Source of the DNA: Candidatus Thorarchaeota archaeon
Lineage (GTDB): Archaea; Asgardarchaeota; Thorarchaeia; Thorarchaeales; Thorarchaeaceae
Length of the DNA stretch: 64,000 nucleotides
NCBI GenBank assembly: GCA_038893995.1
Contig: JAWAQK010000001.1
Location: 43,776 to 107,775 of the forward strand
Direction of reading: 5' to 3'
Below are positions 12,971 to 34,355 of this stretch, piece after piece; within the stretch, counting starts at the first letter, position 1, and the number at the start of each line of letters is the position of its first letter. Under the pieces are notes generated by a model. The model was given only the letters and a program-made list of their open reading frames with translations, had not been told where the DNA came from and made no database searches. A program made the translations under genes and the position numbers.

Positions 12971-13320
12971 TTTCCGTTCACCCCGACAGCCTCTCGGACT
13001 TGTTCGACTGTTGGAACCCTACCGCTCCACAAGACTGTCAGTCCCTTGCCATTCTCAACAAGAATGGTGGGCGTTGATGCAATAAAGACTTGTGCCTCTA
13101 ACAGTCTGTACTCGAAGTCAGGGTCCATCTCATCAAGATCAACTTCCTTAACAGACACACACGTTCCCTCGAGGGCCTCAGACAGTACCAGCTTTGCAGC
13201 TGGACAATTGACGCACCCCTTCTGTGTGATCAGATAGACCGTAGTCAAGTCAGCTTGTCCTCCCGACGACATCTGCAAGCACCCGGCGCCTGTATTGATC
13301 ACAGGTACTGGAGATGACAC
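12967..13320 (-). CDS. Glutaredoxin/NrdH-like redoxin.
   Basis: CVNC active site preceded by a beta-strand (TVYLITQKGCVNCP). Overlaps the nrdD start by 4 nt. An alternative start at the internal Met (13272) gives a 101-aa protein. Confidence 0.6.
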   Translation of the reverse strand: MSSPVPVINTGAGCLQMSSGGQADLTTVYLITQKGCVNCPAAKLVLSEALEGTCVSVKEVDLDEMDPDFEYRLLEAQVFIASTPTILVENGKGLTVLWSGRVPTVEQVREAVGVNGK

Positions 13321-13610
13321 CTACGGTTGAATAAAAGTCTTGGCACACCGGAATCTTCCAGCATGGAGCGCTCTGTAGGCTCTTGGAGCCCTTGCTCGAA
13401 CGGGTGTGATACATTGTCAGAGTCATGTGCCCGGTGACCCTTAAGAGCTCCTACGAGGAACACTTCCAGAATCAGGTCGGGCGAATTGCAGTCGCACCGG
13501 ATGACTCGTGACGCGAGAGGGGGACAGGACTCGCTGCACTGCTCACCCCTCCTTGCAGGATTGCGCCACAGACACCTGGACGGAATTGCTAAGACGACCG
13601 TGTTCTGACC

Positions 13611-14318
13611 ATGTCACGAAGGCAAGGAGAATCTCCAGAGAGGACAACAAATCATAATAGGTTCATGCAGAACGACGCCAACAGGTACGAGGCAATGCCC
13701 ATCTATCTGAGAGCAAGGACGCCCGCGGCTGGATGGCGAATGGTTGTAAGAAGAATCATGGAATCGGGAAACACTAGACTTGACGAGCGAGGACTGGAGA
13801 CCCTTTGGCTCGACAACGTGATGATCCACGTCCAGGATCCCTACACCGACAGACTGGCATCCGAGTACCCATTCAGCGAGGATGTGATCAAGAACAAGTA
13901 CGCAACTCAATTACTCACGCCTGACAGGTTGGACTTCGAGTATACGTACGGTGAACGACTCAATGCTTGGGGTGACGAGAGGATCAACCAGGTACAGTAT
14001 GTAATAAGGAAACTTCGAGAGAACAAGAATACCCGTCGCGCCGTGGCGACCACCTGGGACCCGAGGAGGGACCACAAGACTGACGAGGTCCCCTGCCTGA
14101 ACCATTTCGTGTTCATGACCAGAGAGGAGGAACTGGATGTCTCGGTAATGATCAGGTCCAACGACATGTTTGGTGCATGGCCGGCGAACGTCTATGGAGT
14201 GTCGGAGCTACTCAGAAAGATCTCAGCAGACACTGGACTCCGACCGGGAAGAGTCACGACCCTGTCAGTCAATGCTCACATATACAGACACGACTGGGAG
14301 AGAGCATCTACAATCTGA
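13611..14318 (+). CDS. thyA: Thymidylate synthase (ThyA family, short archaeal type).
   Basis: RRAVATTWDPRRD, the catalytic PC in EVPCLNHFVFM, and RSNDMFGAWPANVYGVSELL together match ThyA core motifs (Cys nucleophile, RSxD, GxPxN). Confidence 0.6.
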   Translation: MSRRQGESPERTTNHNRFMQNDANRYEAMPIYLRARTPAAGWRMVVRRIMESGNTRLDERGLETLWLDNVMIHVQDPYTDRLASEYPFSEDVIKNKYATQLLTPDRLDFEYTYGERLNAWGDERINQVQYVIRKLRENKNTRRAVATTWDPRRDHKTDEVPCLNHFVFMTREEELDVSVMIRSNDMFGAWPANVYGVSELLRKISADTGLRPGRVTTLSVNAHIYRHDWERASTI

Positions 14319-14346
14319 TTGGCAGAGCGGTTGTCTTCAATACAGG

Positions 14347-15009
14347 ATGGGCCAGATAGTGACGGAGCGTGCTGCAATGAGACATTCGAGTCGAGGACTA
14401 TCCGATCTGGATGACACTGATCGAAGCATAGTTGCAATACTTCGGTCCAATGGACGTACTAGTCTGTCTCAGATAGGTAGGCGGCTTGGCCTGTCGCACG
14501 TTGCAATCAAGAACAGGATCGACAGGCTGGTCAGGAGGGGACTCCTTCGAGTATCAGCCAACCTAGGTCTGACGAAATTGGGAATGCGTGTGATGTTTAT
14601 CCTATTGACTCTTGACGACCCCAAGTGTGCGGACCACCTGGCAGCAAAGTACTCTGGGTGTCCTCGTGCACTGATAGTAACTCAGCTGACAGGGAAGTAT
14701 CATCTCGCAATGACTATTGTTGCAGAGGACGACAAGTGCCTCGAGTCAATCAGCATGAATCACTCCGTACTGAGAGAGCCGTGTGTGAGCAATGCCGAGC
14801 TCCATAGGGGAACAGTGGTTGCGGAGTCCCGGCATCTCCCCACGGATGTCATACAGGAAACCAACAGCAACTGCAGTACAGCATGCGAGAGATCATGTGC
14901 TGAGTGCAGCCACTATCGCTCAAGGGACTGCCCCGCGTGTCCCGGCACTGTGTGGTACAGATGCAGTGGTGCCGGTCCCTGTGTCAATGGCAGCATGAGG
15001 AAGAGTTAA
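14347..15009 (+). CDS. Lrp/AsnC-family transcriptional regulator with a Cys-rich C-terminal tail.
   Basis: HTH region DDTDRSIVAILRSNGRTSLSQIGRRLGLSHVAIKNRIDRLVRRGLL followed by a RAM-like domain. The tail is CSTACERSCAECSHYRSRDCPACPG. Start chosen at the internal ATG 14347, just after the thyA stop. The ORF track starts at 14170, overlapping thyA. Confidence 0.6.
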   Translation: MGQIVTERAAMRHSSRGLSDLDDTDRSIVAILRSNGRTSLSQIGRRLGLSHVAIKNRIDRLVRRGLLRVSANLGLTKLGMRVMFILLTLDDPKCADHLAAKYSGCPRALIVTQLTGKYHLAMTIVAEDDKCLESISMNHSVLREPCVSNAELHRGTVVAESRHLPTDVIQETNSNCSTACERSCAECSHYRSRDCPACPGTVWYRCSGAGPCVNGSMRKS

Positions 15010-17728: not shown

Positions 17729-20032
17729 TCAGGAACGTATGTAGGACCTACGGTTGAGGACCGAACCGAGATGGACCATCACTCTACGCTCCACCATCGC
17801 AACACCATCCATCATCCGGACTGCACGAGAGATATTCGAGAGCACTGCATTCATGTACGGTTGTACCCTTGTCGGCTCTCCTTGAGCCATCATCCCTATG
17901 TAGGCATTGGTTATCTTTACTAGTCCTAGCCAGTCCTCGGGAAGTAGGAATGAAGACTCAAGGAACATATCATCTGATGGAATGGTTTCGGTGTGATCCA
18001 CAGACACCTCGTACTGAACCTCAAGGGCACTTAGAAGTCGCGAGAGCATATTTGTGAACGACGTTGCAACTGAGAGAATGAACTCACGAGACTCTGAGAT
18101 CGATGAGTCTTCTGAATGACATCTTCCGAATGACACGGCAGCTTGATGCAGCAGAGGAGCCAGTTCCTGGTGATTCCTGTTCTCGAAGAAGAGTCGGATT
18201 CCACTAGCCAGCAGGGCCTGGCCCTCCCAGTATCTTGTCAGGACGGGGTCAATATCATGTACCGAGAACTGCTCAGGACTGACGATGCCACTGACTGTTT
18301 CCGTACCAAGAGGTTGGATGTTTATCTTTGCTGTAGCAAAGGCCGCCATCAGCCTACCTACATCTCTGAGTTCAGAGTTGCGCTCCACGAGACTGAGGGC
18401 CCTTCTCTTGAGTTGGAACCAGTCACCGAACATCAGAGGCACAGCGAGTGATATTCCTTCAACGATCGAGGGACTGTCAGGAGGGCACAAGTCAAGGATC
18501 ATCCTATCCAGATCAAGAATGACCCTGCGCAGTCGCTCAGGAATGAATAGTCTATGCCTCAGAGAGAGCCAGGCAATATCGTACAATGCGATTGCGGCCT
18601 CGACAAGAGCACGCGAGTCAGAGGGAAAGAGTCGCATGTAGCGCAGTAGAGATTCACTCAGGAGATCGTTCGCACGGTCATCAATCGTTTCGGACTCACA
18701 GATTGCCGCGAGGCCCAATCCAACCATGGAGCTCAGTAATGCAATCTCCAGGCATTGACCCTTGTTGAGTAGAGATGTCCTCATCTCTACAGAACGCTGA
18801 AACGACTCAACTGCGGCAGACCGAAACTCTGCAGACTCCGAGAGTAGACAGGCCCAGCCAATAGCATGCAGACAACTGGCGATCTCAGACATCATGTCGT
18901 TCTCTGGAGACTTCAGGTCGTCTGCGACTTTCTGAGCCCGGCGGAGGTAGTCGATTGCAAGTGCTGTGCCGTCATCACTTCCGGTCAGGCTGTGGGCATG
19001 GCCGAGACCTACTAGGCAGCGCAGCAATGCCATCCGCTGCTCTCTTGTCGGGTCCTCGATCGATTCATAGACTGCGAGAGCCGCGTTCAGGCGTTCTACG
19101 GCCTGGGGTATCGCCTCCCGCCACCCACCAATGAGTATCGTCGAACCTACTAGAAGATATGCTGCCGCGAGATCGCCCCTGGTCATAAGACCTGCATCCA
19201 CGCTTCTCTCGTACTCCTGCAGTGCACGGTCAGCAAGGTCACGGGCAGTCTGATAGCTCACACCTTCGTCTCGCGTCTCATTTATCGCAAGCTGGAGAGC
19301 CAGTTGAATCCGTGATGCGGGCGGGAGTTCGGAGCCCATCTCTGATTCAAGCTGTTTCAGTAGACTCCTGGAGCGATCGAAGAGTTCCAGGTCAGTAAGG
19401 ACGGAGGCGAGGTCCAGGGTGAGGTCCAGCAAGAGGTCTCTGAATCCCAGCTGTCGTGATACTGAGAGTAGCCGGTCCAGGAGTGGTTCGGCACACTCTG
19501 CAAGGCCTTCATCCATCAGGGACCTGGCCAGGTAGTGCACCTCGGCCACTGCCAACTTGGTGAAGGATATCTGGTCACGGGCGATGATCGAGTCTAGCGT
19601 ATGGAGTGTTTCGTCAGCCAGGAATGCCAAGAGGGGACGTAGACCATGCCCTAAGGAGACTGACATGGACTGGCCCAGCTCACCAAGCAGGTCAATCAGA
19701 ATTGGCAGAGCCTCAAGATCGGGAAGGTCCTCCGCCGCCGTACGTCTGTACTCATTGGTGAACCTGGTGTCCAGTAGAGATATCAGCTCTGACAGCTCCG
19801 ATGTCTTATCAAATGAGTGACGCACGATGAGTTCAAGGAACTTGTAGTTTGCAAGTGCCGGCCTTCTGAGAAGCACTTCCTCGAGGGCTCGTGCCAACTC
19901 ATGACCCAGTTCATGAGAGTCGGGGGAGAAACGTGAGATTCCTTGAAGTGCAGCGAGACCATCGTCGAGGGAGACAGATGCACACAGTAGGTCCCTCAAG
20001 ATTGTCCGAATCCTTGGATCCAAACAGTTCAC
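17729..20032 (-). CDS. Large helical-repeat (TPR/HEAT-like) hypothetical protein.
   Basis: 767 aa, Leu/Ala/Glu/Arg-rich, predicted all-alpha, no catalytic motifs. Sits 47 bp downstream of the KaiC-like pair on the same strand. Confidence 0.5.
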   Translation of the reverse strand: MNCLDPRIRTILRDLLCASVSLDDGLAALQGISRFSPDSHELGHELARALEEVLLRRPALANYKFLELIVRHSFDKTSELSELISLLDTRFTNEYRRTAAEDLPDLEALPILIDLLGELGQSMSVSLGHGLRPLLAFLADETLHTLDSIIARDQISFTKLAVAEVHYLARSLMDEGLAECAEPLLDRLLSVSRQLGFRDLLLDLTLDLASVLTDLELFDRSRSLLKQLESEMGSELPPASRIQLALQLAINETRDEGVSYQTARDLADRALQEYERSVDAGLMTRGDLAAAYLLVGSTILIGGWREAIPQAVERLNAALAVYESIEDPTREQRMALLRCLVGLGHAHSLTGSDDGTALAIDYLRRAQKVADDLKSPENDMMSEIASCLHAIGWACLLSESAEFRSAAVESFQRSVEMRTSLLNKGQCLEIALLSSMVGLGLAAICESETIDDRANDLLSESLLRYMRLFPSDSRALVEAAIALYDIAWLSLRHRLFIPERLRRVILDLDRMILDLCPPDSPSIVEGISLAVPLMFGDWFQLKRRALSLVERNSELRDVGRLMAAFATAKINIQPLGTETVSGIVSPEQFSVHDIDPVLTRYWEGQALLASGIRLFFENRNHQELAPLLHQAAVSFGRCHSEDSSISESREFILSVATSFTNMLSRLLSALEVQYEVSVDHTETIPSDDMFLESSFLLPEDWLGLVKITNAYIGMMAQGEPTRVQPYMNAVLSNISRAVRMMDGVAMVERRVMVHLGSVLNRRSYIRS

Positions 20033-20079
20033 CCGCGATGCGGGTTGACTATTTCATTGGACTGTTAAAGACTTCCGTA

Positions 20080-20787
20080 TCAGCTGAGTCTGAACTCGAC
20101 CCACGCGCGCTTGGTCTCAGTCCCTCTCATTCTCTCCATCCGCACGAAGAACTTGGGAGTATCGCTAGTATCATCCACCCTGAATCTCAGGACCGCATCT
20201 GCGGAGTACGCGAAGCTGGCATACGTCTTGTCGTCATGTACCCCCTCCTCGAGAATGTACATGATACTGTGAGAACCCTGAGTCAGTCGACCGCTGAGTC
20301 TTTGCACGGCCTGAGGTAGAGCTGCAGCACTGGAACTCATGATGAGTGTCGTCAGGCTGTCAACCACGACTCTTGCAACTACAAGTTTCTCCAGCGCCTC
20401 CGTGAGGACGATTCCAAGCTCTGTTATGTCGTCGACCTTTGAGAGTGAGTAGGGACTTGTGCTCTTGACGCCCATCCGGTCCGAATACCCATCTACAAAG
20501 GTGAACATACCATTTCGCTCGTGCTTCTCGATCGGCCAACCATGTCGGCTCATGTCGTTTCGTATCACTCTGGGAGATACATCTGTCGTCACAAAGACCG
20601 CAGGGAAACCCAGCACTAGCCCCTCGGCGAGATATGCCTCGGCATACGTGGTCTTTCCAGAGCCTATCGGCCCCAGTAGCAATATCGACTGTTGAGTCAG
20701 TTGGCCAAACTCGACCAGGTCTCCTAATGTGGGGCTCACCTTGACAGGGTTGCGTTCGTCGATTCGACTATCATCTCGAGCCGTCAA
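20080..20787 (-). CDS. KaiC/RadA-like single-domain RecA-superfamily ATPase.
   Basis: Walker A LLLGPIGSGKTT. Walker B region VVVDSLTTL. 235 aa. Confidence 0.7.
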   Translation of the reverse strand: MTARDDSRIDERNPVKVSPTLGDLVEFGQLTQQSILLLGPIGSGKTTYAEAYLAEGLVLGFPAVFVTTDVSPRVIRNDMSRHGWPIEKHERNGMFTFVDGYSDRMGVKSTSPYSLSKVDDITELGIVLTEALEKLVVARVVVDSLTTLIMSSSAAALPQAVQRLSGRLTQGSHSIMYILEEGVHDDKTYASFAYSADAVLRFRVDDTSDTPKFFVRMERMRGTETKRAWVEFRLS

Positions 20788-20814
20788 TCAATTCACCTCT
20801 CGGATCTAGCTGAT

Positions 20815-21558
20815 TCAGCTGCCGGGGCTTATCTCAGTAGGCCAGACCCGAATACCCTCGTCAGTGATTCTCATGGAGTGTATCCTGGAGCTGTGCTTGG
20901 ATCCTCGGAGCTTCAATACCTCGATCGAACGGGAACGCGACGTGTCGCTTATCTTCTCGTTGTAGAGCACAATGACGCCTGATGCAAGGAAGGCTTCGAT
21001 GTCAAATACGCCCAGTCCGGTGTCCTGTGCAGGTATCTCTGATGTCAGCAGCAGGGTGGCACCTGTGCCTGTTATCTTGGAGCACATCTTGAAGAACTCT
21101 TCTCTGAGAATGTCTCTGCTCCTGAACTTGTATGCAAGGATTGATAGGGTGTCTATGACTACTCTCTTGGCATTCACCTTCTTCATGTTGCTCAGGATGA
21201 TTGACACTAGTGCCGACAGGTCGAAGCTCGGATACTCCTCCACCATGACGGGAGAGGGACGTGACGGTGACAGGTCTACGATCGCCAGCATACCCTGGTT
21301 CTCTAGTTTCTCGAGGTCCATGCCAAATCTCAACATGTTGCGCTTTATGAGGTGAGGGGGCTCCTCGAGAGTGACAAGCACGCCAGGTTCTCCGTATTCG
21401 GTGGCTCCCTTATACAGGAACTGGTTTGCGAGAATGCTCTTCCCAGTACCTGCCTTTCCTGCAATGAGTATGGTGTCACCTCTGGGAAAACCTCCCTCTA
21501 TCAGTTCGTCGAGTCCCGGGATTCCGGTCTTGACTCTATCAATTTGGTAGCCGGTCAT
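20815..21558 (-). CDS. KaiC/RadA-like single-domain RecA-superfamily ATPase.
   Basis: TGIPGLDELIEGGFPRGDTILIAGKAGTGKS (Walker A) and VVIDTLSIL (Walker B). The start is either the internal Met (MTGYQIDRV, 21558) or 21588. Confidence 0.7.
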   Translation of the reverse strand: MTGYQIDRVKTGIPGLDELIEGGFPRGDTILIAGKAGTGKSILANQFLYKGATEYGEPGVLVTLEEPPHLIKRNMLRFGMDLEKLENQGMLAIVDLSPSRPSPVMVEEYPSFDLSALVSIILSNMKKVNAKRVVIDTLSILAYKFRSRDILREEFFKMCSKITGTGATLLLTSEIPAQDTGLGVFDIEAFLASGVIVLYNEKISDTSRSRSIEVLKLRGSKHSSRIHSMRITDEGIRVWPTEISPGS

Positions 21559-21910
21559 CTGGAACACCTCTACGTTTTCTGTATCCAAGGATCATCCTGA
21601 GGATTGACTCTGGTTCGGGTATGCCGGTTATGGAGGCACCTCCGATCATTATCGTCGGAGCAGCGAGTACCCCATAGTACTGTGCGACTTCTGGCTCTTG
21701 GACCACATCAATCTCTCGCAGAGTGAACATGTCAGTATCAAACTCGCCAAGTATGTCTAGCAGTACCTGTTTAGCTCGCGGACAGAAGGGGCATTCATCG
21801 TGGCTAAAGAAGAGGACCTCAACCTTCGAGGATTCCTTCCCATCTTTGGAGCACCCTTCTTCATCAGACGGAGCCAACGAGACGCACTCCCTGTCCTGTG
21901 TGACCTCCAA
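21539..21910 (-). CDS. Thioredoxin/glutaredoxin-like protein (CPFC active site).
   Basis: VLFFSHDECPFCPRAKQVL ... PTIMIGG is a thioredoxin-fold pattern. 123 aa with an acidic N-terminal extension. Same operon as Roadblock and the KaiC-like genes. Confidence 0.55.
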   Translation of the reverse strand: MEVTQDRECVSLAPSDEEGCSKDGKESSKVEVLFFSHDECPFCPRAKQVLLDILGEFDTDMFTLREIDVVQEPEVAQYYGVLAAPTIMIGGASITGIPEPESILRMILGYRKRRGVPDDRLPN

Positions 21911-21948
21911 CTGTGGAGCTGTGCTCTATTGAATGTTATTGCGTCGGC

Positions 21949-22335
21949 CTAACGACGATATGCCATCATCTTTCGTATCTTGGTCGCCACTTTCCCGAGC
22001 GACCGAGAGTGATATCTGAGATGCCGAGGCATCACTGCGGCCAAGAGGAAGGACTGCCCACTGTCGACCAATATCTTGCGGACGACAAACTTTCCCTCCG
22101 AACAACGAATGGAGATCTCGGAGAGCTCCCCAAGCAGCAGTTCGTTCCGGAGACGCTCAACGGAGGAGGCCACATAGCCAGACATTGCAGCAACGATGTC
22201 ACGGTTTGTGGTGGGGGATGCTGAGGATGCCATGAGTAGGCCGTCATCTCGCGCAAGGATTGATGCGACATAGCCTCCGTTTCTGACCATGTCATCAAGC
22301 ATCTCGGTCAATGCCCTGTAGTCAGGTCTTTCCAT
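21949..22335 (-). CDS. Roadblock/LC7 (MglB-like) domain protein.
   Basis: 128 aa. GGYVASILARDDGLLMAS...AAMSGYVASSVERL...SEISIRCSEGKFVVRKILVDSGQSFLLAAVM matches the Roadblock/LC7 alpha-beta-alpha pattern. Confidence 0.7.
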   Translation of the reverse strand: MERPDYRALTEMLDDMVRNGGYVASILARDDGLLMASSASPTTNRDIVAAMSGYVASSVERLRNELLLGELSEISIRCSEGKFVVRKILVDSGQSFLLAAVMPRHLRYHSRSLGKVATKIRKMMAYRR

Positions 22336-22482
22336 GTGAATCGCTCCGTCATCCCTAATCGATTGCGCATTTTTCTTTTAAAGGATGAGGTCACATCCCC
22401 TGCTCCAGTATCTTGCAGTTGCACTCACAACATAGTTTTAAGTTAGGCTCCAAATGTGAGTCAGACGAGGATGTGATGTCGT

Positions 22483-23031
22483 TTGACTGCCGAATATAGA
22501 TTCAAGGTGGTCATGCTCGGTGATGGCGCGGTAGGGAAGACTGCGCTCACCAACATGTTCACGCAGGGCCACTTCATCTCCGAATACAAACGGACGATTG
22601 GGTCAGACTTTGCAGTCAAACGTGTCTCAGTACCCCAGAGGAATGCACAGGTCACTCTCCAGGTATGGGACTTGGCAGGACAACCACGATTCGAGATAGT
22701 CAGGCAATCTTTCTATCGTGGAGCAAGAGGAGGATTGCTTGTCTACGATGTCACACGACGCAGGACATTCCTGAACCTCGATCACTGGAGACAGGAAACT
22801 AAGAACAGTCTGAGTCGCGAAATACCCCTGGTCGTGGTCGCCAACAAGGTGGATCTGACAGGCGCACGCGTCGTGACGAGGGAGGAGGGAGAACAGTATG
22901 CTGCCAAGAGCGGACTCATATATGTGGAGGCAAGTGCACTCACAGGCCAGAACGTAGAGGATGCATTCGTGGAACTATGTGTCGAGATGATCGACGAGTC
23001 AAAGTCGGAAGCGAGATCTCAGACAGGTTGA
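22483..23031 (+). CDS. Rab/Ras-like small GTPase (Asgard type, no C-terminal prenylation motif).
   Basis: G1 GDGAVGKT. Switch I YKRTIGSDF (Rab-like TIGxDF). G3 WDLAGQ. G4 NKVDL. G5 EASA. 182 aa. Confidence 0.8.
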   Translation: MTAEYRFKVVMLGDGAVGKTALTNMFTQGHFISEYKRTIGSDFAVKRVSVPQRNAQVTLQVWDLAGQPRFEIVRQSFYRGARGGLLVYDVTRRRTFLNLDHWRQETKNSLSREIPLVVVANKVDLTGARVVTREEGEQYAAKSGLIYVEASALTGQNVEDAFVELCVEMIDESKSEARSQTG

Positions 23032-24179
23032 CCCTTCAAGAGGCCTAGATGCTTCTTGCACTGCCAGACGATATAGAAGATGGTCTTGTCCTGCAACACC
23101 TCACTGCCATATTGTGACATCAGGGACTCGAACCTGCGTACCAGATCAACCCTTCTCTCGCCTGCAGTATCGCTCTCGATCTCTCGCAGCAGTGCCTGGA
23201 GGGGCTCAATCATTGCAGTCCTGTCGACGATTTCCCACCGCCTTATTGCTCCGGTGGACTCACAGGTCAGGAACTCGTTCGAATCTGCCACCCATTCTAG
23301 AGAGTCCGGTTCGCCCCGTGTCATTGTCTCGGCCTGCCTAGTGAAATCACTTGTCCGCCACAGGAAGATGTTCTTGTCAGCAGACCCAGACGCAATAAGG
23401 GACCCATCGTGGTTGAATCCCACACAGCGGACCTCTTGTGTATGTCCTGTGAGTGTCTTCTCATGTCTGAGCTGCCCGTCTGAGGCGTCCCAGACCATGA
23501 CCGTCTGATCAGAAGATGCCGAGGCCACCCTGGTACCGTCCCTGGAAAAGCGCACCTGATGCAGTGCAGATCTGTGTTCTTGGAGCCACTCTATCCTCTC
23601 ACCAGTCGTCGGATCCCAGAGACCAATCATCGCATCGACACCACCGGACACTATCCGATCTCCACGAGGATCCCAGTCGCAGGACACTACGTATAGAGAA
23701 TGGCCCTTGAGCTGTCTCAGTGGCTTGGAACTGCCGATGTCCCACACCATGAGGGTCGTATCGCCACTCGATGACACTAACCTATCGCAGTCGGGAGAGA
23801 AGGCGAGCGACAATATGGGATACCGATGACCCTCGAGACGACATATCAACTCTGCACTCCTGACGTCCCAGACCTTGATAACCCTGTCAACACCACCAGA
23901 CGCTATCACATCACTCCGGGGGCTGAATGCAAGGGCTGTGCACAGGAAGTCGTCTGTGATTCGCTGGACCTCTTGGCAGTCTCTCGCATCGTACAGACGT
24001 ATTGTTCGGTCCTGATGAGCAGCAGCGAACATGCGTCCCACTCTGTTGATGGTGAAACGACGAATGATGTCGTCAGCAGTTTCCGCCTCGGGTCTTAGCA
24101 GCCTAGGACGAAGAAACAATGATGGTACGGACTCCGTCATCTTGCTCACCAGAGTGATTGTCATCGTCTCAAGCAGCAT
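23019..24179 (-). CDS. WD40 repeat (7-bladed beta-propeller) protein with a C-terminal helical tail.
   Basis: Seven GH...WD-type repeats (VWDVRS, MVWDIGS, IGLWDPTT, VMVWDASD, IFLWRTSD, IRRWEIVD). The C-terminal roughly 70 aa are non-WD. Starts 82 bp downstream of the second Rab-like gene on the same strand. Confidence 0.8.
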   Translation of the reverse strand: MLLETMTITLVSKMTESVPSLFLRPRLLRPEAETADDIIRRFTINRVGRMFAAAHQDRTIRLYDARDCQEVQRITDDFLCTALAFSPRSDVIASGGVDRVIKVWDVRSAELICRLEGHRYPILSLAFSPDCDRLVSSSGDTTLMVWDIGSSKPLRQLKGHSLYVVSCDWDPRGDRIVSGGVDAMIGLWDPTTGERIEWLQEHRSALHQVRFSRDGTRVASASSDQTVMVWDASDGQLRHEKTLTGHTQEVRCVGFNHDGSLIASGSADKNIFLWRTSDFTRQAETMTRGEPDSLEWVADSNEFLTCESTGAIRRWEIVDRTAMIEPLQALLREIESDTAGERRVDLVRRFESLMSQYGSEVLQDKTIFYIVWQCKKHLGLLKGQPV

Positions 24180-24261
24180 ATCTAAAAAGAGTTGTGAGGA
24201 TGCGATGGGCCCCTCAAGTCAGTATGGTATGGGTGGCTGGTGGTCCGAAGATGAGCATGGC

Positions 24262-24834
24262 TCAGAGAGTACTCTGGCCAATCGACTCGACCATCATGAT
24301 GATGAGCTCAATGAATGCCTTCTCCACGTTGTGTCCGGTCTTGGCAGATGTTTCAAGGAAGACCGTGCTGACCCCACTTTCTCTGAGCGCCTGTGTGAAC
24401 TTCTCACCCTCCTGCGTCGTGACTATCGATCCCTTCATGGCAGGATTGTCCTTGAACTGGTCCCGGAGATCAGTCTTGTTGCCGATGACTACAATAGGAA
24501 TGGTCTTGCCTGTGTTCGCCCAGCACTCCTCAAGCCAGTTGGGAAGATTATCAAATGACGAACGTTCCACAGTCGAGTATACAGCCAATGCTCCCTGGGC
24601 ACCCTTGTAGAAGGTTGATCGTACGTTCTTGAAGTGAGCCTGTCCAGCAAGATCCCATATCTGGATGTGCACCTCTGTGCCACTCTCAAGTGCCAGTTTT
24701 TTCACTGCGAAATCGGCGCCGATGGTGACCATGTATGAGGCCTTGAAACCTTCGCCCATGTAGGTCCGACGGAGCGAAGTCTTACCTACTGAGCCGTCGC
24801 CCATGAGAACTATCTTGAACAATGCTCTCGGCAT
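24262..24834 (-). CDS. Rab/Ras-like small GTPase.
   Basis: G1 GDGSVGKT. TIGADF. WDLAGQ. GNKTDL. ETSAKTGHNVEKAF. 190 aa. Confidence 0.8.
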   Translation of the reverse strand: MPRALFKIVLMGDGSVGKTSLRRTYMGEGFKASYMVTIGADFAVKKLALESGTEVHIQIWDLAGQAHFKNVRSTFYKGAQGALAVYSTVERSSFDNLPNWLEECWANTGKTIPIVVIGNKTDLRDQFKDNPAMKGSIVTTQEGEKFTQALRESGVSTVFLETSAKTGHNVEKAFIELIIMMVESIGQSTL

Positions 24835-25079: not shown

Positions 25080-25649
25080 ATGCCACATCATCGATGGAAT
25101 CTCCTCAAGGCACTTCCCGAGAGACCACCGATGGCGTTGTTCGCTCGGGACACAGTCCCAGCGGCTCTGTATACGGTGGCCCCGCTGACTAATGCTATCA
25201 ACATTCACTTTCGGTCATCCGTCCCCGACGAACACGTCTGTGAGAATGAACATGAGTCAGAAACAAACCCCAACTATGACGTCATCTTGAGGAAACTACA
25301 ACCTGTAAGGAAACATCGTATCAGAACCCCCTCCTGGAGTTGGATTGAGATGGGTAGGACAGCCCATACCTTTCACGATCTCCTCGCAATGGAGGAGAAA
25401 CGCTGGAGTCAGTTCAGACGCGTACTCAGACAGTCGAAGCGGGAGTTGGTGGACAGGGTGTTCGACTACGCCAGAAAGAATTCTGATGCTGGCTCAATGG
25501 TATTGACACTCCGACCAATGGAAGTCGTACTCATGACTGCAGTCATTGAGATCCTCGACGAGCTGACCAGACTTGATGAGCGAGTCGGTATGCTGGAGAG
25601 GAGGGTCATGGGAGGTGCCAGCAGCGAAGAAGCGAGGCTGGCTACTTGA
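25080..25649 (+). CDS. Hypothetical protein.
   Basis: 189-aa ORF upstream of polB, overlapping it by 76 nt. No motifs recognised. The true start may be an internal Met (MGRTAHTFHDLL). Confidence 0.3.
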   Translation: MPHHRWNLLKALPERPPMALFARDTVPAALYTVAPLTNAINIHFRSSVPDEHVCENEHESETNPNYDVILRKLQPVRKHRIRTPSWSWIEMGRTAHTFHDLLAMEEKRWSQFRRVLRQSKRELVDRVFDYARKNSDAGSMVLTLRPMEVVLMTAVIEILDELTRLDERVGMLERRVMGGASSEEARLAT

Positions 25650-27888
25650 CGTCAGCCTGGATGACGAAAAAGGGGACCTGATCCTGTGGATAAGGGATGA
25701 GACAGGGACCAAGGGACTCAGATATCGTCGATTCAGACCGTCCCTGTTTGTGAAGACAGACCTGATCGACAGACCGGAGTTTCCGGTCAGAGAACTGATC
25801 AGGAGAGTCAGCGAGCATCCCAGAGTTCTCGGCGTTCGGCTTGTCAAGAGATACCTCTCCGTATATGACGAACATAGGAGCAAAGTACTACAGGTATTCG
25901 TCAGAGGAAACTCATTGCAGAGAGTTGCAGAAGACCTGGAAACATTGCCAGGGGCAATCGTGTTTCATGCAGACCTAGATGCCGTACAGCAGTTCTTCAT
26001 CGACAGAGAGATCTTTCCCTTCAGTCTCATCGAGTATGAGACGGATGGCATCGAGTTGTTCGACATCAGGTGCCTCAGCAGGAGGGAGGAGGTAGAATAC
26101 GAAGTGCCCCCGCTCAGAGAGATACAGATTGAGCCATACATGGAAACGAGAGGCCCCTTTCCCAGAATCGAGGATCCAATTCACCACATTCGAGTTAGAT
26201 TCGACAATCGGACTCTCTACGTGAGAGGACACAGCGAGAGAGAGACACTGTGTCTGTTTCAGGAGGTAATTGACCGCATAGACCCCGATATCATCATCAC
26301 ACGTGGCGGAGACGATGGAGTGCTAAGATATCTCAGCATGAGATACAGGGTCAACAACATGGCCCTGAGACTCTCAAGAGACGGAAGGCCGCTCATCATC
26401 AATGAGAGAGAACCGTCTTCATTCTGGCAGTACAATAGGATCGTCTTCAGACCGGGCAATCAGGTCATGCTCAGAGGCAGGATACATATAGATATGGCAG
26501 ATAGTCTCTACTACGCGCCCTCCAGGGTGGAGGGGGTGATTGAGGGCTGTAGACTTGCGATGGCACCTCCCCAGAGAGTTGCACGTATGTCCATCGGAAG
26601 CGTCAACGCGGCAATGCAGTACTACACCGCAATGAAGAGGGAGATCCTCATTCCCCCAGTCAAGCGCAATCCCGAGTATCTCAAGACAGTGGAGAGGCTC
26701 CTCAATCTTGACAGGGGAGGGCTCATACTTCAGCCACGTCCAGACATCTATGAAAATGTGGGGGAGTTTGATTTCTCATCGATGTATCCGACAATAATGA
26801 TCACCAAGAACATCAGCCCTGAAACTGTCTGCACACGAACCACCTGTCCCTACGATAAGAAATACTGCATCGATGTTCCAGAACTCGACTACAAGATATG
26901 TGGCCGAAAGAGGGGACTTGTGCCCGAGTCATTAGAGCTAGTGGTCAAGAAGAGAAATCAGCTCAAGAGGCTCATGCTTGACGGAAAGGACGTCAGACGG
27001 CATGGAGTCATCCAGAACACCCTCAAGGGAATACTGGTCTCCTGTTTTGGATACCTCGGATTTAGAAACGCCCGATTTGGCCGTGTTGAGGCGCATGCTG
27101 CAGTGACGGCCTTTGCGCGAGACATTCTGCTCAGGACGCAGGAGATTGCGGAGGAGAGAGGCCTTGAGTTGGTGCATGGGATCGTCGATTCTCTCTGGGT
27201 ACACTCGAGAACAGAGTTGGGTCACCAAGACCTGTTGGAGTTCGCCAGACAAGTCACCGAGTGCGTCGGCATTGAGATGACGCTGAAGGGAGTCTACAGA
27301 TGGATGGTCGTGCCATCATCAAGACTGCATCCAGTGGTAGCACCCATGAATCGTTACTACGGAGTATATCGGAATGGTTCAATAAAGGTCAGGGGTATTG
27401 AGGCCAGACGCAGAGACACTTGTCTCTACGTGAGGGACTGTCAAAAGGAGATGATCCGGACGCTTGCACATGCACCAGACAGAGATGCTCTTATCCGGGC
27501 AATACCCGATGCGAGGGCGGTCTGTGAGGAATTCATCCGGAAACTGAGGGAGGGAGATGTTGACATTAGAGACCTGGTCCTGCAGTCAAGACTGACACAT
27601 CATCCGGATGAGTATCATGGTACTACAAGAGTGGCGGTGGCAGCCCGCCAGTTAGCAGGCATGGGACGGAGACTCTACCCTGGACAAAGCGTGCGATACA
27701 TAATGGTGGAGTCCAAGTCAAGGAACCCGGCTCGACGGGTGAGGGCCATCGAGCTGGTAGATGAATCCACAAGATATGACCCGGACGCATATTCGGAACT
27801 CTGTATCCGTGCCTTCGAGAATCTGATACCGGCCCAGTATCTCGACTCATCATCAGAACTGGCTCACTCGGAGACCAGATTGACCTGA
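25573..27888 (+). CDS. polB: Family B DNA polymerase with degenerate exonuclease motifs and a degenerate polymerase motif C (PolB2-like paralog).
   Basis: Motif A DFSSMYPTIM. KxY/motif B region LKGILVSCFGYLGF. Motif C reads HGIVDSLWV instead of YxDTDS. Exo I reads LFDIRCL instead of FDIET, and Exo II reads TRGGDDGVLRYL. 771 aa, no inteins. Confidence 0.8.
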   Translation: MMSESVCWRGGSWEVPAAKKRGWLLDVSLDDEKGDLILWIRDETGTKGLRYRRFRPSLFVKTDLIDRPEFPVRELIRRVSEHPRVLGVRLVKRYLSVYDEHRSKVLQVFVRGNSLQRVAEDLETLPGAIVFHADLDAVQQFFIDREIFPFSLIEYETDGIELFDIRCLSRREEVEYEVPPLREIQIEPYMETRGPFPRIEDPIHHIRVRFDNRTLYVRGHSERETLCLFQEVIDRIDPDIIITRGGDDGVLRYLSMRYRVNNMALRLSRDGRPLIINEREPSSFWQYNRIVFRPGNQVMLRGRIHIDMADSLYYAPSRVEGVIEGCRLAMAPPQRVARMSIGSVNAAMQYYTAMKREILIPPVKRNPEYLKTVERLLNLDRGGLILQPRPDIYENVGEFDFSSMYPTIMITKNISPETVCTRTTCPYDKKYCIDVPELDYKICGRKRGLVPESLELVVKKRNQLKRLMLDGKDVRRHGVIQNTLKGILVSCFGYLGFRNARFGRVEAHAAVTAFARDILLRTQEIAEERGLELVHGIVDSLWVHSRTELGHQDLLEFARQVTECVGIEMTLKGVYRWMVVPSSRLHPVVAPMNRYYGVYRNGSIKVRGIEARRRDTCLYVRDCQKEMIRTLAHAPDRDALIRAIPDARAVCEEFIRKLREGDVDIRDLVLQSRLTHHPDEYHGTTRVAVAARQLAGMGRRLYPGQSVRYIMVESKSRNPARRVRAIELVDESTRYDPDAYSELCIRAFENLIPAQYLDSSSELAHSETRLT

Positions 27889-30333: not shown

Positions 30334-31251
30334 ATGTTCGTGTTCAAGAGAGAGCAGACAGTCTTTGACGCAGGAGGTGTCAGGATAGGCGGTCAGCCAG
30401 GTGAGAATCCCACAGTCCTCGTTGGAGGTCTGTTCTTCAAGGGTCAGCCGATAGTTGAGGATGTCAGCAGTGGGAGGTTTGATCAGGCACTGGCTGCTGA
30501 ATGGATATCGACTGCGATGGGCATGTCCCAGAGGACTGGGCATCCGCTCATCCTGCAGGTCTATGGCGCCACGCCAGAGGCAATGGAGAGGCATCTACAG
30601 TGGGTCACAGAGAAGTTCGATGGCCCCTTCATGTTTGAGTCTACCAACAGTGATGCAAGGAAGCGAGGTATCACCTACTGCAGTGAAGTCGGACTCGAGA
30701 ACAGGACCATTTACAACTCGGTCAACATGTCCATGAGGGATGACGAGAGAGAAACTCTGAGGAACAGTCCGATACACATGGCGGTCATCCTTGGATGGTC
30801 ACCCCGGATTGTCTCAATGCTGGACAGGATGGAACTGATCAGGTCCACATTGAGTGAGGCGGAGGGCCTGGGAATCGATGTCTTCCTCGTGGATCCAGCC
30901 GTGATGCCAGTCGGAGCGGGCTATGGGAGTGAGTACAGGACCCTGATCTCCATCAAGGCAGAACTTGGACTCCCGACCTGTCTTGGGCCTCACAATGCGG
31001 TGTCGTCCTGGAGCTACCTCAGACAACACAGTTCCGACAATAGAGACATGTATCTTGCATCAATCGCTGCGTCTGTCGCTGCGGCTCAGGTCTGTGCCGC
31101 GGACTGCATAATGTTCGGTTCTCTGCAGTGGGCGAGGGAGATATTCGCATCAGTGGCACTCGTTCAGAACGCCATAGTGACAGCTGTGGGAGAGGCTGAC
31201 GAGACACTCGGGCTGAAGCGAGATCTGTTCGAACCACCAACATGCAGATAG
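30334..31251 (+). CDS. mtrH: MtrH-like corrinoid:tetrahydromethanopterin/tetrahydrofolate methyltransferase.
   Basis: MFVFKREQTVFDAGGVRIGGQPGENPTVLVGGLFF...GHPLILQVYGATPEAMERHLQWVTEKFDGPFMFEST matches MtrH/pterin-binding (DHPS-like) methyltransferases. Confidence 0.75.
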   Translation: MFVFKREQTVFDAGGVRIGGQPGENPTVLVGGLFFKGQPIVEDVSSGRFDQALAAEWISTAMGMSQRTGHPLILQVYGATPEAMERHLQWVTEKFDGPFMFESTNSDARKRGITYCSEVGLENRTIYNSVNMSMRDDERETLRNSPIHMAVILGWSPRIVSMLDRMELIRSTLSEAEGLGIDVFLVDPAVMPVGAGYGSEYRTLISIKAELGLPTCLGPHNAVSSWSYLRQHSSDNRDMYLASIAASVAAAQVCAADCIMFGSLQWAREIFASVALVQNAIVTAVGEADETLGLKRDLFEPPTCR

Positions 31252-31264
31252 GGGGTGCTGAGAC

Positions 31265-31957
31265 ATGACCAATTCTGACAAGCGAAAGTGGCCGCCGGTA
31301 CCAGGTGACTACCGTGTCGGGAATGCCAGCAGCCCTGTCGCCATCTGCACACTGGGAAAATGGATTGATGTCGATGTCGACTACGCGATTCTTGGCACCT
31401 GCAAGACAGAGAACATAGGAATTGAACGGATCATCGTAAATACCATATCAAATCCTCACATCCGATTCTTCATTCTTGCAGGCCCCGAGGTCCCAGGACA
31501 CAGGACCGGTGCCTCGATAAGAGCCCTGTTTCAGAACGGGGTCGATCCCAGAGACCGCAGAATAGTAGGAGCCGAGGGCGCAATACCCTACATCGAGAAC
31601 ATTCCACTCGAGGCAATCGAACGTTTCCGGAGGCAGCTTACGCTCTGCGACATGTTAGATGTGGTAGAACCCGAGAGAATCAGGGCGGCGGCAGTGGCCC
31701 TTATCTCAAGACCAGTGGAACCTCTCGCAGAGGAACCGATGTGGGTTGACTTTGGGTCAGGCAAGCGAAGTACGCAGCATGCGATGCAGGCAGGGAGTGT
31801 CTCTTTAGTCCCCGAGTTAGGACTGGTCCTGGATCCGCGCATATCCATGGTATCCAGACAGAGCCGAAGTGCAACGGTGACCCAGCATCCGTCACCAGCG
31901 GGCGTGGAGATTCAGACTAGGGATGGGGGAACACTACTGATGGCAAGGGGGTATTGA
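31265..31957 (+). CDS. mtrA: MtrA-like corrinoid-binding protein (soluble, no C-terminal TM anchor).
   Basis: YRVGNASSPVAICTLG...TCKTENIGIERIIVNTISNPHIRFFILAGPEVPGHRTGASIRALFQNGVDPRDRRIVGAEGAIPYIENIPLEAIERFRRQ aligns closely with the MtrA N-terminal cobamide-binding domain, including the His in GHxTG. Confidence 0.75.
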   Translation: MTNSDKRKWPPVPGDYRVGNASSPVAICTLGKWIDVDVDYAILGTCKTENIGIERIIVNTISNPHIRFFILAGPEVPGHRTGASIRALFQNGVDPRDRRIVGAEGAIPYIENIPLEAIERFRRQLTLCDMLDVVEPERIRAAAVALISRPVEPLAEEPMWVDFGSGKRSTQHAMQAGSVSLVPELGLVLDPRISMVSRQSRSATVTQHPSPAGVEIQTRDGGTLLMARGY

Positions 31958-31960
31958 GAG

Positions 31961-32896
31961 TTGTTTGTGTTCGAGAGAGAACAATACATCTACAACATCG
32001 GAGGCGTCAGGATAGGGGGCAACCCGGGCGAGAGAGCGACTGTACTGGCTGGCACCATATTCTATTCGGGAGACAAGACTGTCAGCGACCCCAGTGCGGG
32101 TGTGTTCGACAGGACCGCGGCCGAGACACAGATCCGGAACCAGGATGCGATCTCAGAGACTACGGGAAATCCTGCACTGGTACAGGTATTCGCAGAGTCG
32201 GAGAGCGCCATGACGAGGTATATCGACTTCGTGACCGAGATGACAGACGCTCCGTTCCTCATTGACTCCACGGATCCGAAGGTCCGGATAGCCGGTCTCA
32301 GACACGCAGAAGAGGTGGGAGTCATAGGTCGGGCCATCTACAACTCGCTCAATGTCAGCATCAACACAGAAGAGTTGCAGACTCTCTCCGAACTGAGACC
32401 AGAGGCCGCGATCATATTGGCTTTCAATCCTGCCGACACGTCAATTGCTGGAAGACGTGCAGTGCTAGAGGAACCGTATGCTGAGTATGGCGAGGGTCTG
32501 CTATCACTTGCCAAGAGGGTCGGAATAACAAAGCCCCTCGTCGATACCGCAACTACTGCTATGGGCGCAGGAGCAGGTCCATCTGTGTCTTTCGTGTTCG
32601 TGGCCAAGAGCGTCTATGGTCACCCAACAGGATCTGGAATCCACAACGCTCCATCATCGTGGCCATGGCTGAGAGCGCACAAGAAGGTCAACCGTGCGGC
32701 CTTTGAGGCATGTGATGTCGCATCGGCACTGCTCGTACATTCTATGGGGGCGGACTTCATCTTGTACGGGCCCATCGTGAATGCAGACAGGGTCTTTCCT
32801 GTGGTGGCCATGGCTGATGTCCTGGCCGCAGAGTCTCTGTCTACGGAGTTTGGTCTGGGGCCACCTGAGAATCACCCATTCCGAAGGCTCCTATGA
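31961..32896 (+). CDS. mtrH: MtrH-like methyltransferase (second paralog).
   Basis: MFVFEREQYIYNIGGVRIGGNPGERATVLAGTIFYSGDKTVSDPSAGVFDRTAAE...DAPFLIDSTDPKVR. Starts 3 bp after mtrA. Confidence 0.75.
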   Translation: MFVFEREQYIYNIGGVRIGGNPGERATVLAGTIFYSGDKTVSDPSAGVFDRTAAETQIRNQDAISETTGNPALVQVFAESESAMTRYIDFVTEMTDAPFLIDSTDPKVRIAGLRHAEEVGVIGRAIYNSLNVSINTEELQTLSELRPEAAIILAFNPADTSIAGRRAVLEEPYAEYGEGLLSLAKRVGITKPLVDTATTAMGAGAGPSVSFVFVAKSVYGHPTGSGIHNAPSSWPWLRAHKKVNRAAFEACDVASALLVHSMGADFILYGPIVNADRVFPVVAMADVLAAESLSTEFGLGPPENHPFRRLL

Positions 32897-32918
32897 CAGA
32901 TGTCGAGGAATCCGGTCA

Positions 32919-34355
32919 ATGAGGTACAGGATCATTCACCCGCGCGGCATAAGCATGCTCTCGGTCAGGCTGGGCTCCTTCTTCACTGTTGCGTCGGTTG
33001 AACTCGGCAATACCACGACCAAGTGTATCGTGGTCACCACTAATCTGAAGACGGCCGAGGTATTTGAGATTGGGAAGGAGGTGCGGATGACGCGTGACAT
33101 CAGATTACCATGGGACGGGGAGACACCATTTGGGCATACAATCACCCGCAGGCCTCTCACGAGAGAGGCTGTATCGGAGATGGTGAGTGACATCCTGACA
33201 ACAACGGTGAAGCGCAATGGTATGGATATGAAGACTGATCTTGACTTCGTCGTACGCTCTACAGGCGTTACGGCGGGATTCGCACATCCTGATGAAGTAG
33301 ATGGGATGATCAGAGCGCTTGCAGACGGTTGTCTGAATGCGGGCGTGCCACCTGGAAAGATGATGGCCGCAATGTCAGTAATCAACCTCAACCCACGATT
33401 GCGCTCCCACAGCTGGTTGAACAAGGTGCACTTCGATGGTGCAGTTGCGAGCTGTCTTCCACCGGCAGGCAGACAGGTGGTGGCAAATGAGATGGAGGGC
33501 GAGCTTGTCACTGCCGGAATAAAGGGGGCCGCCAAGGGTACGGGTATTGACTTCCGCAATCCAGTCGCCACGATGGACTTTGGAACGACCCTCGCAGGGA
33601 GAATCACAGACGACTCCTATCCGTACGCAAACACAGTGGCCTCCTTTGTTGGCCTTGCAGGAGCCATTCCTGACGCCGTTGTGAGAGGGACCGGTTTCGT
33701 AGACAGGAACGAGGGATGCACCATCGACCTCACCTTACCGCACAAGAGAGAGGAGATAGAGGAATCGTCTTCGTGGTTGGAGGAGGCCAGCAGGATCATT
33801 ACGGTCGATAGGGTGCCCAGGGGAGTGGAGAGGTTCGGGACTGTACCCGTAGACATGAGGGCTGCAGAGGAGGCAGACCTGACCTTGCTCGGAGTCGATG
33901 TGGGGTGCAATGGATCTAGACTAGCTGATCTTGGTGAGATAGGACTCAGCATTGTTCAGGAGAAGGGCCCAGAAATCTTGCACTCATTTCTTGATCATCT
34001 TCAGGCACGCATAGTCCACAGACTGATAGAACTCGCTGAGTCAGAGGGACTGGTCAACGGACGCACATCGATAGGCCTCACAGGACGGGCGATAACAACT
34101 GGAATGAAACCTGAGCTGATCAGCAGCTGGCTGGAACGGTCTGGCGTATTGCCCCAGAGAGAGCAGGACATCGTAGTCTTTGTAGAAGATGGCCTCGCAT
34201 TTGGCGCAGCTGTGGCCGCCAGGTGCATGAACTCACTGGGAACGCCTCATGAGCCAATGGGAGGACGTAGGGGAGACAGATGCATAATGGGGGCGCGCAT
34301 GGCAATCCAGTCAGGCAGGGCTGGGGAGGTCAGGAGGAACTCGGCAGACAACTGA
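32919..34355 (+). CDS. ASKHA-fold (acetate/sugar kinase / BadF-BcrA-HgdC-like) ATPase-like protein. It is a possible corrinoid activase or chaperone.
   Basis: N-terminal phosphate-1-like motif VASVELGNTTTKCIVV. Further Gly-rich D/G motifs (MDFGTTLAG, LGVDVGCNGS, IGLTGRAITTG). 479 aa from the internal ATG 32919, 22 bp after mtrH. No ferredoxin Cys cluster. Confidence 0.4.
   Translation: MRYRIIHPRGISMLSVRLGSFFTVASVELGNTTTKCIVVTTNLKTAEVFEIGKEVRMTRDIRLPWDGETPFGHTITRRPLTREAVSEMVSDILTTTVKRNGMDMKTDLDFVVRSTGVTAGFAHPDEVDGMIRALADGCLNAGVPPGKMMAAMSVINLNPRLRSHSWLNKVHFDGAVASCLPPAGRQVVANEMEGELVTAGIKGAAKGTGIDFRNPVATMDFGTTLAGRITDDSYPYANTVASFVGLAGAIPDAVVRGTGFVDRNEGCTIDLTLPHKREEIEESSSWLEEASRIITVDRVPRGVERFGTVPVDMRAAEEADLTLLGVDVGCNGSRLADLGEIGLSIVQEKGPEILHSFLDHLQARIVHRLIELAESEGLVNGRTSIGLTGRAITTGMKPELISSWLERSGVLPQREQDIVVFVEDGLAFGAAVAARCMNSLGTPHEPMGGRRGDRCIMGARMAIQSGRAGEVRRNSADN

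Follow-up and report, generated by a model that had tools for sequence, protein, structure and literature searches.

A PPB2-PolB2 operon in a Thorarchaeota genome: a family-B DNA polymerase with a probable role in damage tolerance

A stretch of 64,000 nucleotides (nt) from the genome of a Candidatus Thorarchaeota archaeon (assembly GCA_038893995.1, contig JAWAQK010000001.1, positions 43,776 to 107,775 of the forward strand; this whole stretch is hereafter called the window) carries a chromosomal operon of two genes, ppb2 and polB2, the second of which encodes a family-B DNA polymerase of the PolB2 group. By analogy with the characterized Sulfolobus enzymes, we consider it probable, at roughly 0.8, that this PolB2 acts together with PPB2 as a non-proofreading extender in DNA-damage tolerance and is not the replicase. 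A preliminary description, made by a model from the letters of the window, had called the polymerase PolB2-like and probably not the replicase, and this is borne out by the presence of all B2 signatures and by clustering with labelled PolB2 sequences. The same description had counted it among the inactivated PolB2 proteins of unresolved function, a view that is out of date, because Sulfolobus enzymes with the HxxxD form of motif C are active lesion extenders (PMC8764526).

The polymerase is encoded by an uninterrupted open reading frame (ORF) on the plus strand at 25573-27888, which matches Pfam DNA_pol_B (PF00136, E=3.4e-32) and, weakly, DNA_pol_B_exo1 (E=7.6e-6), and whose top match in the PDB is 5mdn, the PolB of P. 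calidifontis (E=2.7e-40). Structural modelling, which had been proposed as a check, gave a confident AlphaFold2 model (mean predicted local distance difference test, pLDDT, 86.4) with a family-B fold, matched by Foldseek to full-length archaeal PolB structures at template-modelling (TM) scores of 0.72-0.75. That a real family-B DNA polymerase gene lies here was thus correctly recognized at the outset, and only its start had to be moved. Judged from the sequence, translation most likely begins at GTG 25615 and not at TTG 25573, which only opens the longest possible ORF: the GTG start yields 757 amino acids (aa), exactly as in NCBI protein P0001; seven residues then precede the conserved GWLLD, where homologues have four to seven; and a GGAGG sits about 10 nt upstream. 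The product is 100% identical to P0001, which is named 'DNA polymerase domain-containing protein [Candidatus Thorarchaeota archaeon]'. Residue numbers given here follow the 757-aa product, and 14 must be added to obtain the numbering of the preliminary description. A homology search with the polymerase returned more than 110 proteins at 50-63% identity, with nearly all of the source-named ones labelled Thorarchaeota; conservation counts given below refer to 115 such Thorarchaeota homologues unless stated otherwise.

Membership of the PolB2 group was supported by every comparison that we made. The two top NCBIfam models for the polymerase are NF004416 and NF004418, with 344 and 329 bits, followed by a next model at 162 bits, and published PolB2 fragments from Archaeoglobus and halophiles exceed the cut-offs of both. 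In BLASTP comparisons, the polymerase scored 505 bits (39% identity) against the published Bathyarchaeota PolB2 and 422 bits against the published Lokiarchaeota PolB2, but 127 bits against Pfu PolB3; HMMER gave 141 bits against the best PolB3 in the PDB and 73 bits against Sulfolobus PolB1 (1s5j). An exhaustive search of 1.8 billion representatives found 683 relatives at E<=1e-30, and among the best 149 of these (at least 310 bits), HxxxD and D(K/R)GG are present in almost all. The phylogenetic placement that had been suggested earlier was carried out as a neighbour-joining tree, in which the polymerase falls with PolB2, the Thorarchaeota clade nesting inside PolB2-type sequences near Lokiarchaeota and Helarchaeota, far from PolB3 and separated from this outgroup by a long branch. 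This tree, which has one PolB3 outgroup and no bootstrap, with PolB1 compared by score only, is taken as supporting evidence and not as proof. Fold, HxxxD, D(K/R)GG, decay of the exonuclease and clustering all agree, and the polymerase belongs to the PolB2 group.

The B2 group has been described as having a non-conserved ExoI, no ExoIII and a D(K/R) motif (Kazlauskas et al., PMC7544198), and the protein in the window follows this description. Its exonuclease domain still has the fold but no longer the active site: the Asp residues of Exo I and Exo II are replaced, and Exo III is deleted. The HMMER alignment to 5mdn sets the canonical FDIE opposite IQIE, which falls within the beta-strand 169-176 of the AlphaFold2 model, as expected of Exo I; across the clade, the position of the catalytic Asp is occupied by G, D, R or Q, and the Glu is retained in 97 of the 115 homologues. 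Exo I had previously been read as FDIR, which proved to be a chance match, since its four columns are variable among the homologues (T/V/I, S/K/E/D, I/V/L and R/K/E). Exo II, in contrast, is degenerate and lies where it had been placed: TRGGDDGVLRYL pairs with YNGDSFDFPYL, with the Asp of N-x3-F-D opposite Val. Alignment with 5mdn and Pfu Pol revealed no YxxxD of Exo III, and relative to Pfu Pol about 43 residues are missing from the stretch that runs from Exo II to the conserved helix after it. The Pfu Pol reference sequence was checked against PDB 3a2f (1749 bits over 1-775). Intact DxE and DTD motifs, named in the preliminary description as findings that would speak against its assignment, were looked for by alignment, and neither motif is intact.

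The polymerase domain, on the other hand, retains the residues needed for metal binding. Motif A, DFSSMYPT, was correctly located and read in the preliminary description, as was the HGIVDS that stands in place of YxDTDS at motif C. Replacement of the YxDTD of other PolBs by HxxxD is characteristic of PolB2 (Feng et al. 2022, PMC8764526), and HGIVDS matches the YGDTDS or YIDTDG of canonical enzymes column for column in the alignments to 5mdn and Pfu Pol. It is the commonest form of motif C among the 149 distant representatives and also occurs in published halophile, Archaeoglobus, Bathyarchaeota and Lokiarchaeota PolB2. The earlier claim that one of two metal-binding Asp residues is lost did not survive this comparison: the missing residue is the first Asp of DTD, which faces away from the metals and the active centre according to structural work summarized in PMC8764526 and is not a ligand. 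The catalytic metals are bound by two Asp residues that the protein retains, D386 in motif A and D525, the second Asp of motif C. Motif B and the KxY region had been described as intact, which holds for the motif B Lys but not for two other motif B positions (Table 1) or for KxY itself, which reads NRY, a typical PolB2 change. D386 and D525 are invariant among the Thorarchaeota homologues, and the Lys of motif B (K471) and the Tyr of motif A (Y391), the latter corresponding to the steric gate of other family-B polymerases, are invariant or nearly so; each of these four residues is also kept in 45-48 of 48 other PolB2 sequences. Conservation of catalytic residues across such diverged homologues argues for a working polymerase.

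A further feature of the polymerase is a group of four cysteines, C406, C411, C418 and C429 (26830-26901, aa 406-429), which are invariant in 70 Thorarchaeota PolB2 sequences. C411 and C429 are common to nearly all other PolB2, and Pfu Pol has cysteines at about those two positions; other PolB2 lineages show C-x-C-C and a distal Cys in this region. The cluster may be a metal-binding site.

The polB2 gene is tightly linked in archaea to PPB2 (arCOG07300) and to iRadA, an inactivated RadA (PMC4104785, PMC11791011). PPB2 has been described as a protein of about 90 aa with three helices and a conserved N-terminal MGRT arm, and it has been modelled as a trimer whose arm is inserted beside the polymerase D(K/R) loop and DNA (PMC11791011). 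The small ORF upstream of polB2, said at first to be of unknown function, is identified by its sequence as this known PolB2 partner: it has the MGRT start, PF26485 (DUF8156) is recorded in precomputed matches on it, on its Thorarchaeota orthologues and on the published Loki and Bathy PPB2, and BLASTP aligned it with the Loki PPB2 TET04597 at 42% identity (E=5e-12) and with the Bathy protein UCF59053 at E=7e-9. A local Pfam scan gave no match for the small ORF, PF26485 apparently not being among the models scanned. The ORF in the mechanical list begins at 25080 and encodes 189 aa with an internal ...IE-MGRTAHTF...; the ATG at 25350 in it opens the 99-aa ppb2. The segment 25080-25349 is an artefactual upstream extension of ppb2, both in this ORF and in the public call of 172 aa. 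A small DUF8156 gene is called directly upstream of polB2, abutting or overlapping it, at all seven Thorarchaeota loci compared; the orthologues at the six other loci are 86-91 aa long, and the four that were translated begin with (M/L)GRT(V/I)RTF. The AlphaFold2 model of PPB2 consists of an unstructured N-terminal arm followed by helices 8-23, 28-45 and 54-98; at pLDDT 71.5 with a shallow alignment it is only moderately confident, because the word-indexed search with 99 aa gave just three proteins.

Some details of the ppb2 region differ among loci. The C-terminus of PPB2 in the window is 8-9 residues longer than in the orthologues, which produces the 35-nt overlap with polB2; elsewhere, ppb2 and polB2 adjoin or share only a few bases, and at one locus they are 20 nt apart. 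The overlap in the window suggests co-translation. When the 120 nt upstream of ppb2 were aligned for the seven loci, no robust element common to all was found. An element (G/A)(G/A)(T/C)CAGATTT occurs about 50-100 nt before the ppb2 start in three of the seven upstream regions (L002, L003 and L005) and is not clearly present in the corresponding region of the window (TCAGAAAC), and an inverted repeat TGTTCA-N7-TG(A/T)ACA is common to L004 and L089; these shared elements could be regulatory sites or chance matches. A scan for bacterial-type promoters and terminators at ppb2-polB2 was uninformative, the models being bacterial and the host archaeal.

The D(K/R) motif of PolB2, described in PMC7544198 and PMC11791011, is represented in the window protein by DRGG (D366-R367-G-G), which is invariant in the 115 Thorarchaeota sequences; its Asp is present in all 48 other PolB2 sequences aligned. 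It follows the loop LIPPVKRNPEYLKTVERLLNL, and residues 350-368 have pLDDT values below 50 in the AlphaFold2 monomer model. In published models, the PolB2 loop binds iRadA via F-x-x-A/G, an element like that of Rad51 oligomerization, and the DR residues touch the N-terminal arm of PPB2 (PMC11791011). The positions of all these elements are collected in Table 1.

Table 1. Coordinates in the window of the ppb2-polB2 genes and of the polymerase motifs.
Feature	Position	Strand	Remarks
ppb2 (arCOG07300 / Pfam DUF8156)	25350..25649	+	99 aa; N-terminus MGRTAHTF; overlaps polB2 by 35 nt
polB2 coding sequence	25615..27888	+	757 aa and stop, most likely start; matches P0001, homologue starts, GGAGG, Pfam/NCBIfam/PDB and the AlphaFold2 model
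FDIR, previously read as Exo I	26059..26070	+	chance look-alike of Exo I, in the beta-strand before IQIE (model)
Exo I-equivalent strand IQIE	26122..26133	+	aa 170-173; catalytic Asp replaced by Gln, Glu kept; HMMER alignment to 5mdn
Degenerate Exo II TRGGDDGVLRYL	26299..26334	+	catalytic Asp replaced by Val, Leu in most Thorarchaeota; compared with 5mdn and Pfu Pol
Loop LIPPVKRNPEYLKTVERLLNL with D(K/R)GG motif (DRGG, 26710-26721)	26647..26721	+	conserved but disordered
Motif A DFSSMYPT	26770..26793	+	catalytic D386 and Tyr; aligned with Pfu DFRALYPS; (near-)invariant in 115 homologues
Motif B KGILVSCFGYLGF	27025..27063	+	Lys kept; Asn to Val and Tyr to Phe, likewise in other PolB2
Motif C HGIVDS	27175..27192	+	PolB2-type HxxxD; metal-ligand D525 kept; invariant in 115 homologues

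How the operon may work can be proposed by analogy. Dpo2 of S. islandicus and S. solfataricus, which has the HxxxD motif, was shown to be a robust but distributive polymerase with no detectable exonuclease, which inserts nucleotides poorly opposite lesions but efficiently extends mismatched and lesion-opposed termini (PMC8764526). The Sulfolobus gene is also damage-inducible and is the sole polymerase gene essential for damage-induced mutagenesis. An extender role is proposed for the Thorarchaeota protein because the Sulfolobus enzyme with the same type of motif behaves in this way. With the Asp of motif A, the Lys of motif B and the second Asp of motif C in place, the palm, fingers and thumb should be competent for catalysis, and the enzyme would be a specialized, distributive polymerase without proofreading, used in DNA-damage tolerance and possibly induced by damage, as in Sulfolobus. 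Another polymerase would first insert a nucleotide, after which PolB2 would extend the mismatched or lesion-opposed primer end, while a PPB2 trimer may insert its MGRT arm beside the DR loop of PolB2 and the DNA.

Two other accounts of the protein were considered, and both fit the data poorly. The original 'inactivated PolB' view, on which the preliminary description leaned and which was the published view in 2008-2014, holds that the protein is a pseudo-polymerase without catalytic activity, whose role is only structural or regulatory. Replacement of the first Asp of DTD and of the catalytic residues of the exonuclease speaks in its favor, but the invariance of the polymerase catalytic residues reported above, in Thorarchaeota and almost throughout the other PolB2, is hard to explain without catalysis, and the Sulfolobus PolB2 with the same HxxxD is robustly active (PMC8764526); we therefore regard a dead enzyme as improbable. 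Still harder to sustain, and in our estimate very improbable indeed, is the idea that the protein is the replicase of this archaeon, functionally like PolB1 or PolB3 and merely unusual in its motifs. It is true that the protein is a full-length family-B polymerase with N-terminal, exonuclease-like, palm, fingers and thumb domains, and that its best structural matches are replicative archaeal PolBs. However, it has no proofreading site, clusters with PolB2 and not with PolB3 or PolB1, is paired with PPB2, and has neither a clear PIP box nor replication genes nearby, and PolB2 has been deleted in S. islandicus, where a modest growth advantage was reported (PMC8100216).

Several points nevertheless weigh against the extender reading that we prefer. 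The activity is assumed by extension from the Sulfolobus enzymes, which are no more than distant relatives of Asgard PolB2. There is no clear PCNA-binding (PIP) motif at the C-terminus of the polymerase, which ends in SETRLT and has no aromatics there; many Thorarchaeota homologues have a (D/E)Q-x-x-L-L tail. The damage-response genes that neighbor PolB2 at other loci, namely orc1/cdc6, SRAP and DUF72, were not found among the window genes scanned. Furthermore, the operon has no linked iRadA. The Loki and Bathy operons that we retrieved have the order iRadA (Pfam Rad51)-PPB2-PolB2, whereas no Rad51-family gene was found in the ppb2-polB2 operon or its flanks (up to about 8 kb per side) at any of the seven Thorarchaeota loci, and no iRadA was found in the 64-kb window or the Thorarchaeota loci by phmmer and hmmsearch with six published iRadA sequences and a 120-sequence profile; these negative results apply to the window and to the flanks of the seven loci. 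The profile matched best, though not significantly (E=0.012), a KaiC-like ATPase of the window whose Walker A is intact. Finally, the docking loop reads PE-x-F-x-x-(G/A) in all 45 PolB2 sequences from iRadA-containing loci (44 of them Loki-type), but PE-(F/Y/S)-L-K-(S/T)-(V/I/A) in the six Thorarchaeota loci scored, with L-K-T-V in the window protein.

The altered F-x-x-A/G element may mean that the assembly differs from the published pentamer. A doubtful but possible extension is that Thorarchaeota use a two-component PolB2-PPB2 system, in which iRadA was lost or replaced by a different, unlinked partner and the docking element was remodelled clade-wide to (F/Y)-L-K-(S/T)-(V/I). This would be consistent with the lack of a Rad51-family neighbor at seven of seven loci, when iRadA is adjacent in the Loki and Bathy operons, with the failure of the profile to find a match in the window, and with the replacement of F-x-x-A/G. 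The loop is, however, strongly conserved although the monomer model shows it as disordered, a combination that suggests a binding partner: N352, P353, E354 and L356 are invariant among the Thorarchaeota homologues, and most of these have an aromatic residue one position before the expected Phe, which might substitute for it. In addition, fast evolution can put iRadA beyond the reach of sequence searches (PMC4104785), and within Thorarchaeota our search was confined to the window and the flanks of the seven loci. The KaiC-like ATPases at 20080-21588 were considered as iRadA substitutes and rejected, since they have an intact Walker A, lie on the opposite strand, five genes away, and give no significant match to the iRadA profile.

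The distribution of iRadA was also surveyed more widely. A profile search of a large protein database gave only Loki and Bathy proteins among the top 120 matches listed, and a scan of a genome collection found at least 80 loci, which were Loki-type. Three contigs labelled 'Candidatus Thorarchaeota archaeon' (L040, L077 and L082) carry an iRadA 71-80% identical to that of Lokiarchaeota, and contigs labelled Hod-, Hermod- or Odinarchaeota do likewise. The full PolB2 of L082, which groups with Loki, has 32% identity to the window protein, and L077 holds only a weakly similar fragment. The taxonomic labels of the submission that they come from may be unreliable; the alternative is that Asgard lineages exchange a second PolB2 operon, of Loki type. 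These three loci say nothing about the Thorarchaeota clade of the window.

The neighbors of the ppb2-polB2 pair are a divergent gene for a Ras-like GTPase and a convergent one for a LarC-type nickel-insertion protein, and the chromosomal synteny around the pair is the same in all seven Thorarchaeota genomes. This conserved synteny argues against a mobile-element polymerase; a casposon or other mobile-element PolB was rejected on the grounds of constant neighbors in the seven genomes and of the absence of mobile-element genes in the flanks, terminal repeats not having been searched for. No second family-B polymerase was found among the window genes scanned. The earlier statement that the gene does not lie within a replication gene cluster holds insofar as there are no replication genes nearby, but it passed over the characteristic ppb2-polB2 operon, here without iRadA, in which the gene sits.

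Other genes of the window may be mentioned briefly. An Asgard 'eukaryote-like' signaling block lies just upstream of ppb2-polB2, at 17729-24834, in the same order in the seven Thorarchaeota genomes. Its first part consists of a 767-aa TPR-like protein, two KaiC-like ATPases (one with DUF7504) and a thioredoxin/KaiB-like protein, and the remainder of a Roadblock/LC7 protein, a Ras-like GTPase, a WD40 propeller and a second Ras-like GTPase. Between the WD40 and second Ras-like GTPase genes, three Thorarchaeota genomes have an ORF of 400-420 aa with no Pfam match (L004, 5638-6900; L088, 5500-6702; L089, 5675-6904); it was not found in the window or at three other loci, and the L004 copy has no match to the iRadA profile. 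At 30334-34355, MtrH-MtrA-MtrH-DUF2114 genes are on the plus strand in the window and on the minus strand, in reversed order, at the six other Thorarchaeota loci, which suggests a local inversion in the window genome. Farther away, 10-15 kb upstream of polB2, the block 9702-15009 includes a TFIIB/TFB homologue (9702-10556, minus strand), the anaerobic ribonucleotide reductase NrdD (10826-12970, minus strand) and a thymidylate-synthase-like ORF (13611-14318, plus strand) that overlaps an AsnC-type helix-turn-helix ORF. A tie between this region and the regulation of polB2, as might be thought of by comparison with TFB3 in Sulfolobus, is not indicated.

The PolB2 family is already known and has been noted in Thorarchaeota, a 'Candidatus Thorarchaeota archaeon' PolB2 being included in a published alignment (PMC8764526, Fig. 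1A), and the partner gene is known too. The locus confirms that the widespread archaeal PolB2 damage-tolerance polymerase and PPB2 are present in this Thorarchaeota genome, and is nothing new in itself. For annotation, the 'DNA polymerase domain-containing protein' should be renamed PolB2, the hypothetical gene of 172-189 aa should become the 99-aa PPB2, and the polymerase should not be described as inactive. The sole aspect that warrants follow-up, and a mildly unusual one, is the absence of a linked iRadA together with the altered docking element. If iRadA were truly missing, this would bear on the assembly and recruitment of the PolB2 complex in the archaea most closely related to eukaryotes, and a two-component PolB2 complex would amount to a natural experiment on the contribution of iRadA.

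Among known systems, Dpo2 of S. islandicus resembles the Thorarchaeota protein in its HxxxD motif C, its D(K/R) motif, its inactive exonuclease domain and its association with PPB2, and a role as an exonuclease-free translesion extender is presumed to be shared. Sulfolobus Dpo2 has been called the smallest PolB2 known (PMC8764526), whereas the Thorarchaeota protein has 757 aa and a well-folded exonuclease-like domain; the Sulfolobus gene order is PPB2-PolB2-iRadA, and the Thorarchaeota operon is ppb2-polB2 without iRadA. Also close are the Loki and Bathy operons (PMC11791011), in which a PolB2 34-39% identical to that of the window, with HGIVDS and DRGG, is directly preceded by a PPB2 with DUF8156 and the MGRT start. 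These operons differ in that they open with a Rad51-family iRadA and their PolB2 has PE-x-F-x-x-(G/A), while the Thorarchaeota loci have no linked iRadA and show PE-(F/Y)-L-K-(S/T)-(V/I).

The replicative PolB3 enzymes (Pfu, KOD, Tgo and P. calidifontis) share with the window protein the fold (TM 0.72-0.75), motif A and the catalytic Asp residues, but are only about 20-25% identical to it and have intact Exo I-III, YxDTD and a C-terminal PIP box, none of which is present in the window protein. Eukaryotic Pol zeta (Rev3) and E. coli Pol II are, like the proposed Thorarchaeota enzyme, family-B extenders of distorted primer ends, and Pol zeta, too, combines a dead exonuclease with accessory subunits (PMC11791011). 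This likeness is one of function only: Pol zeta and Pol II come from other clades and work with other accessory proteins, and proofreading is retained in Pol II.

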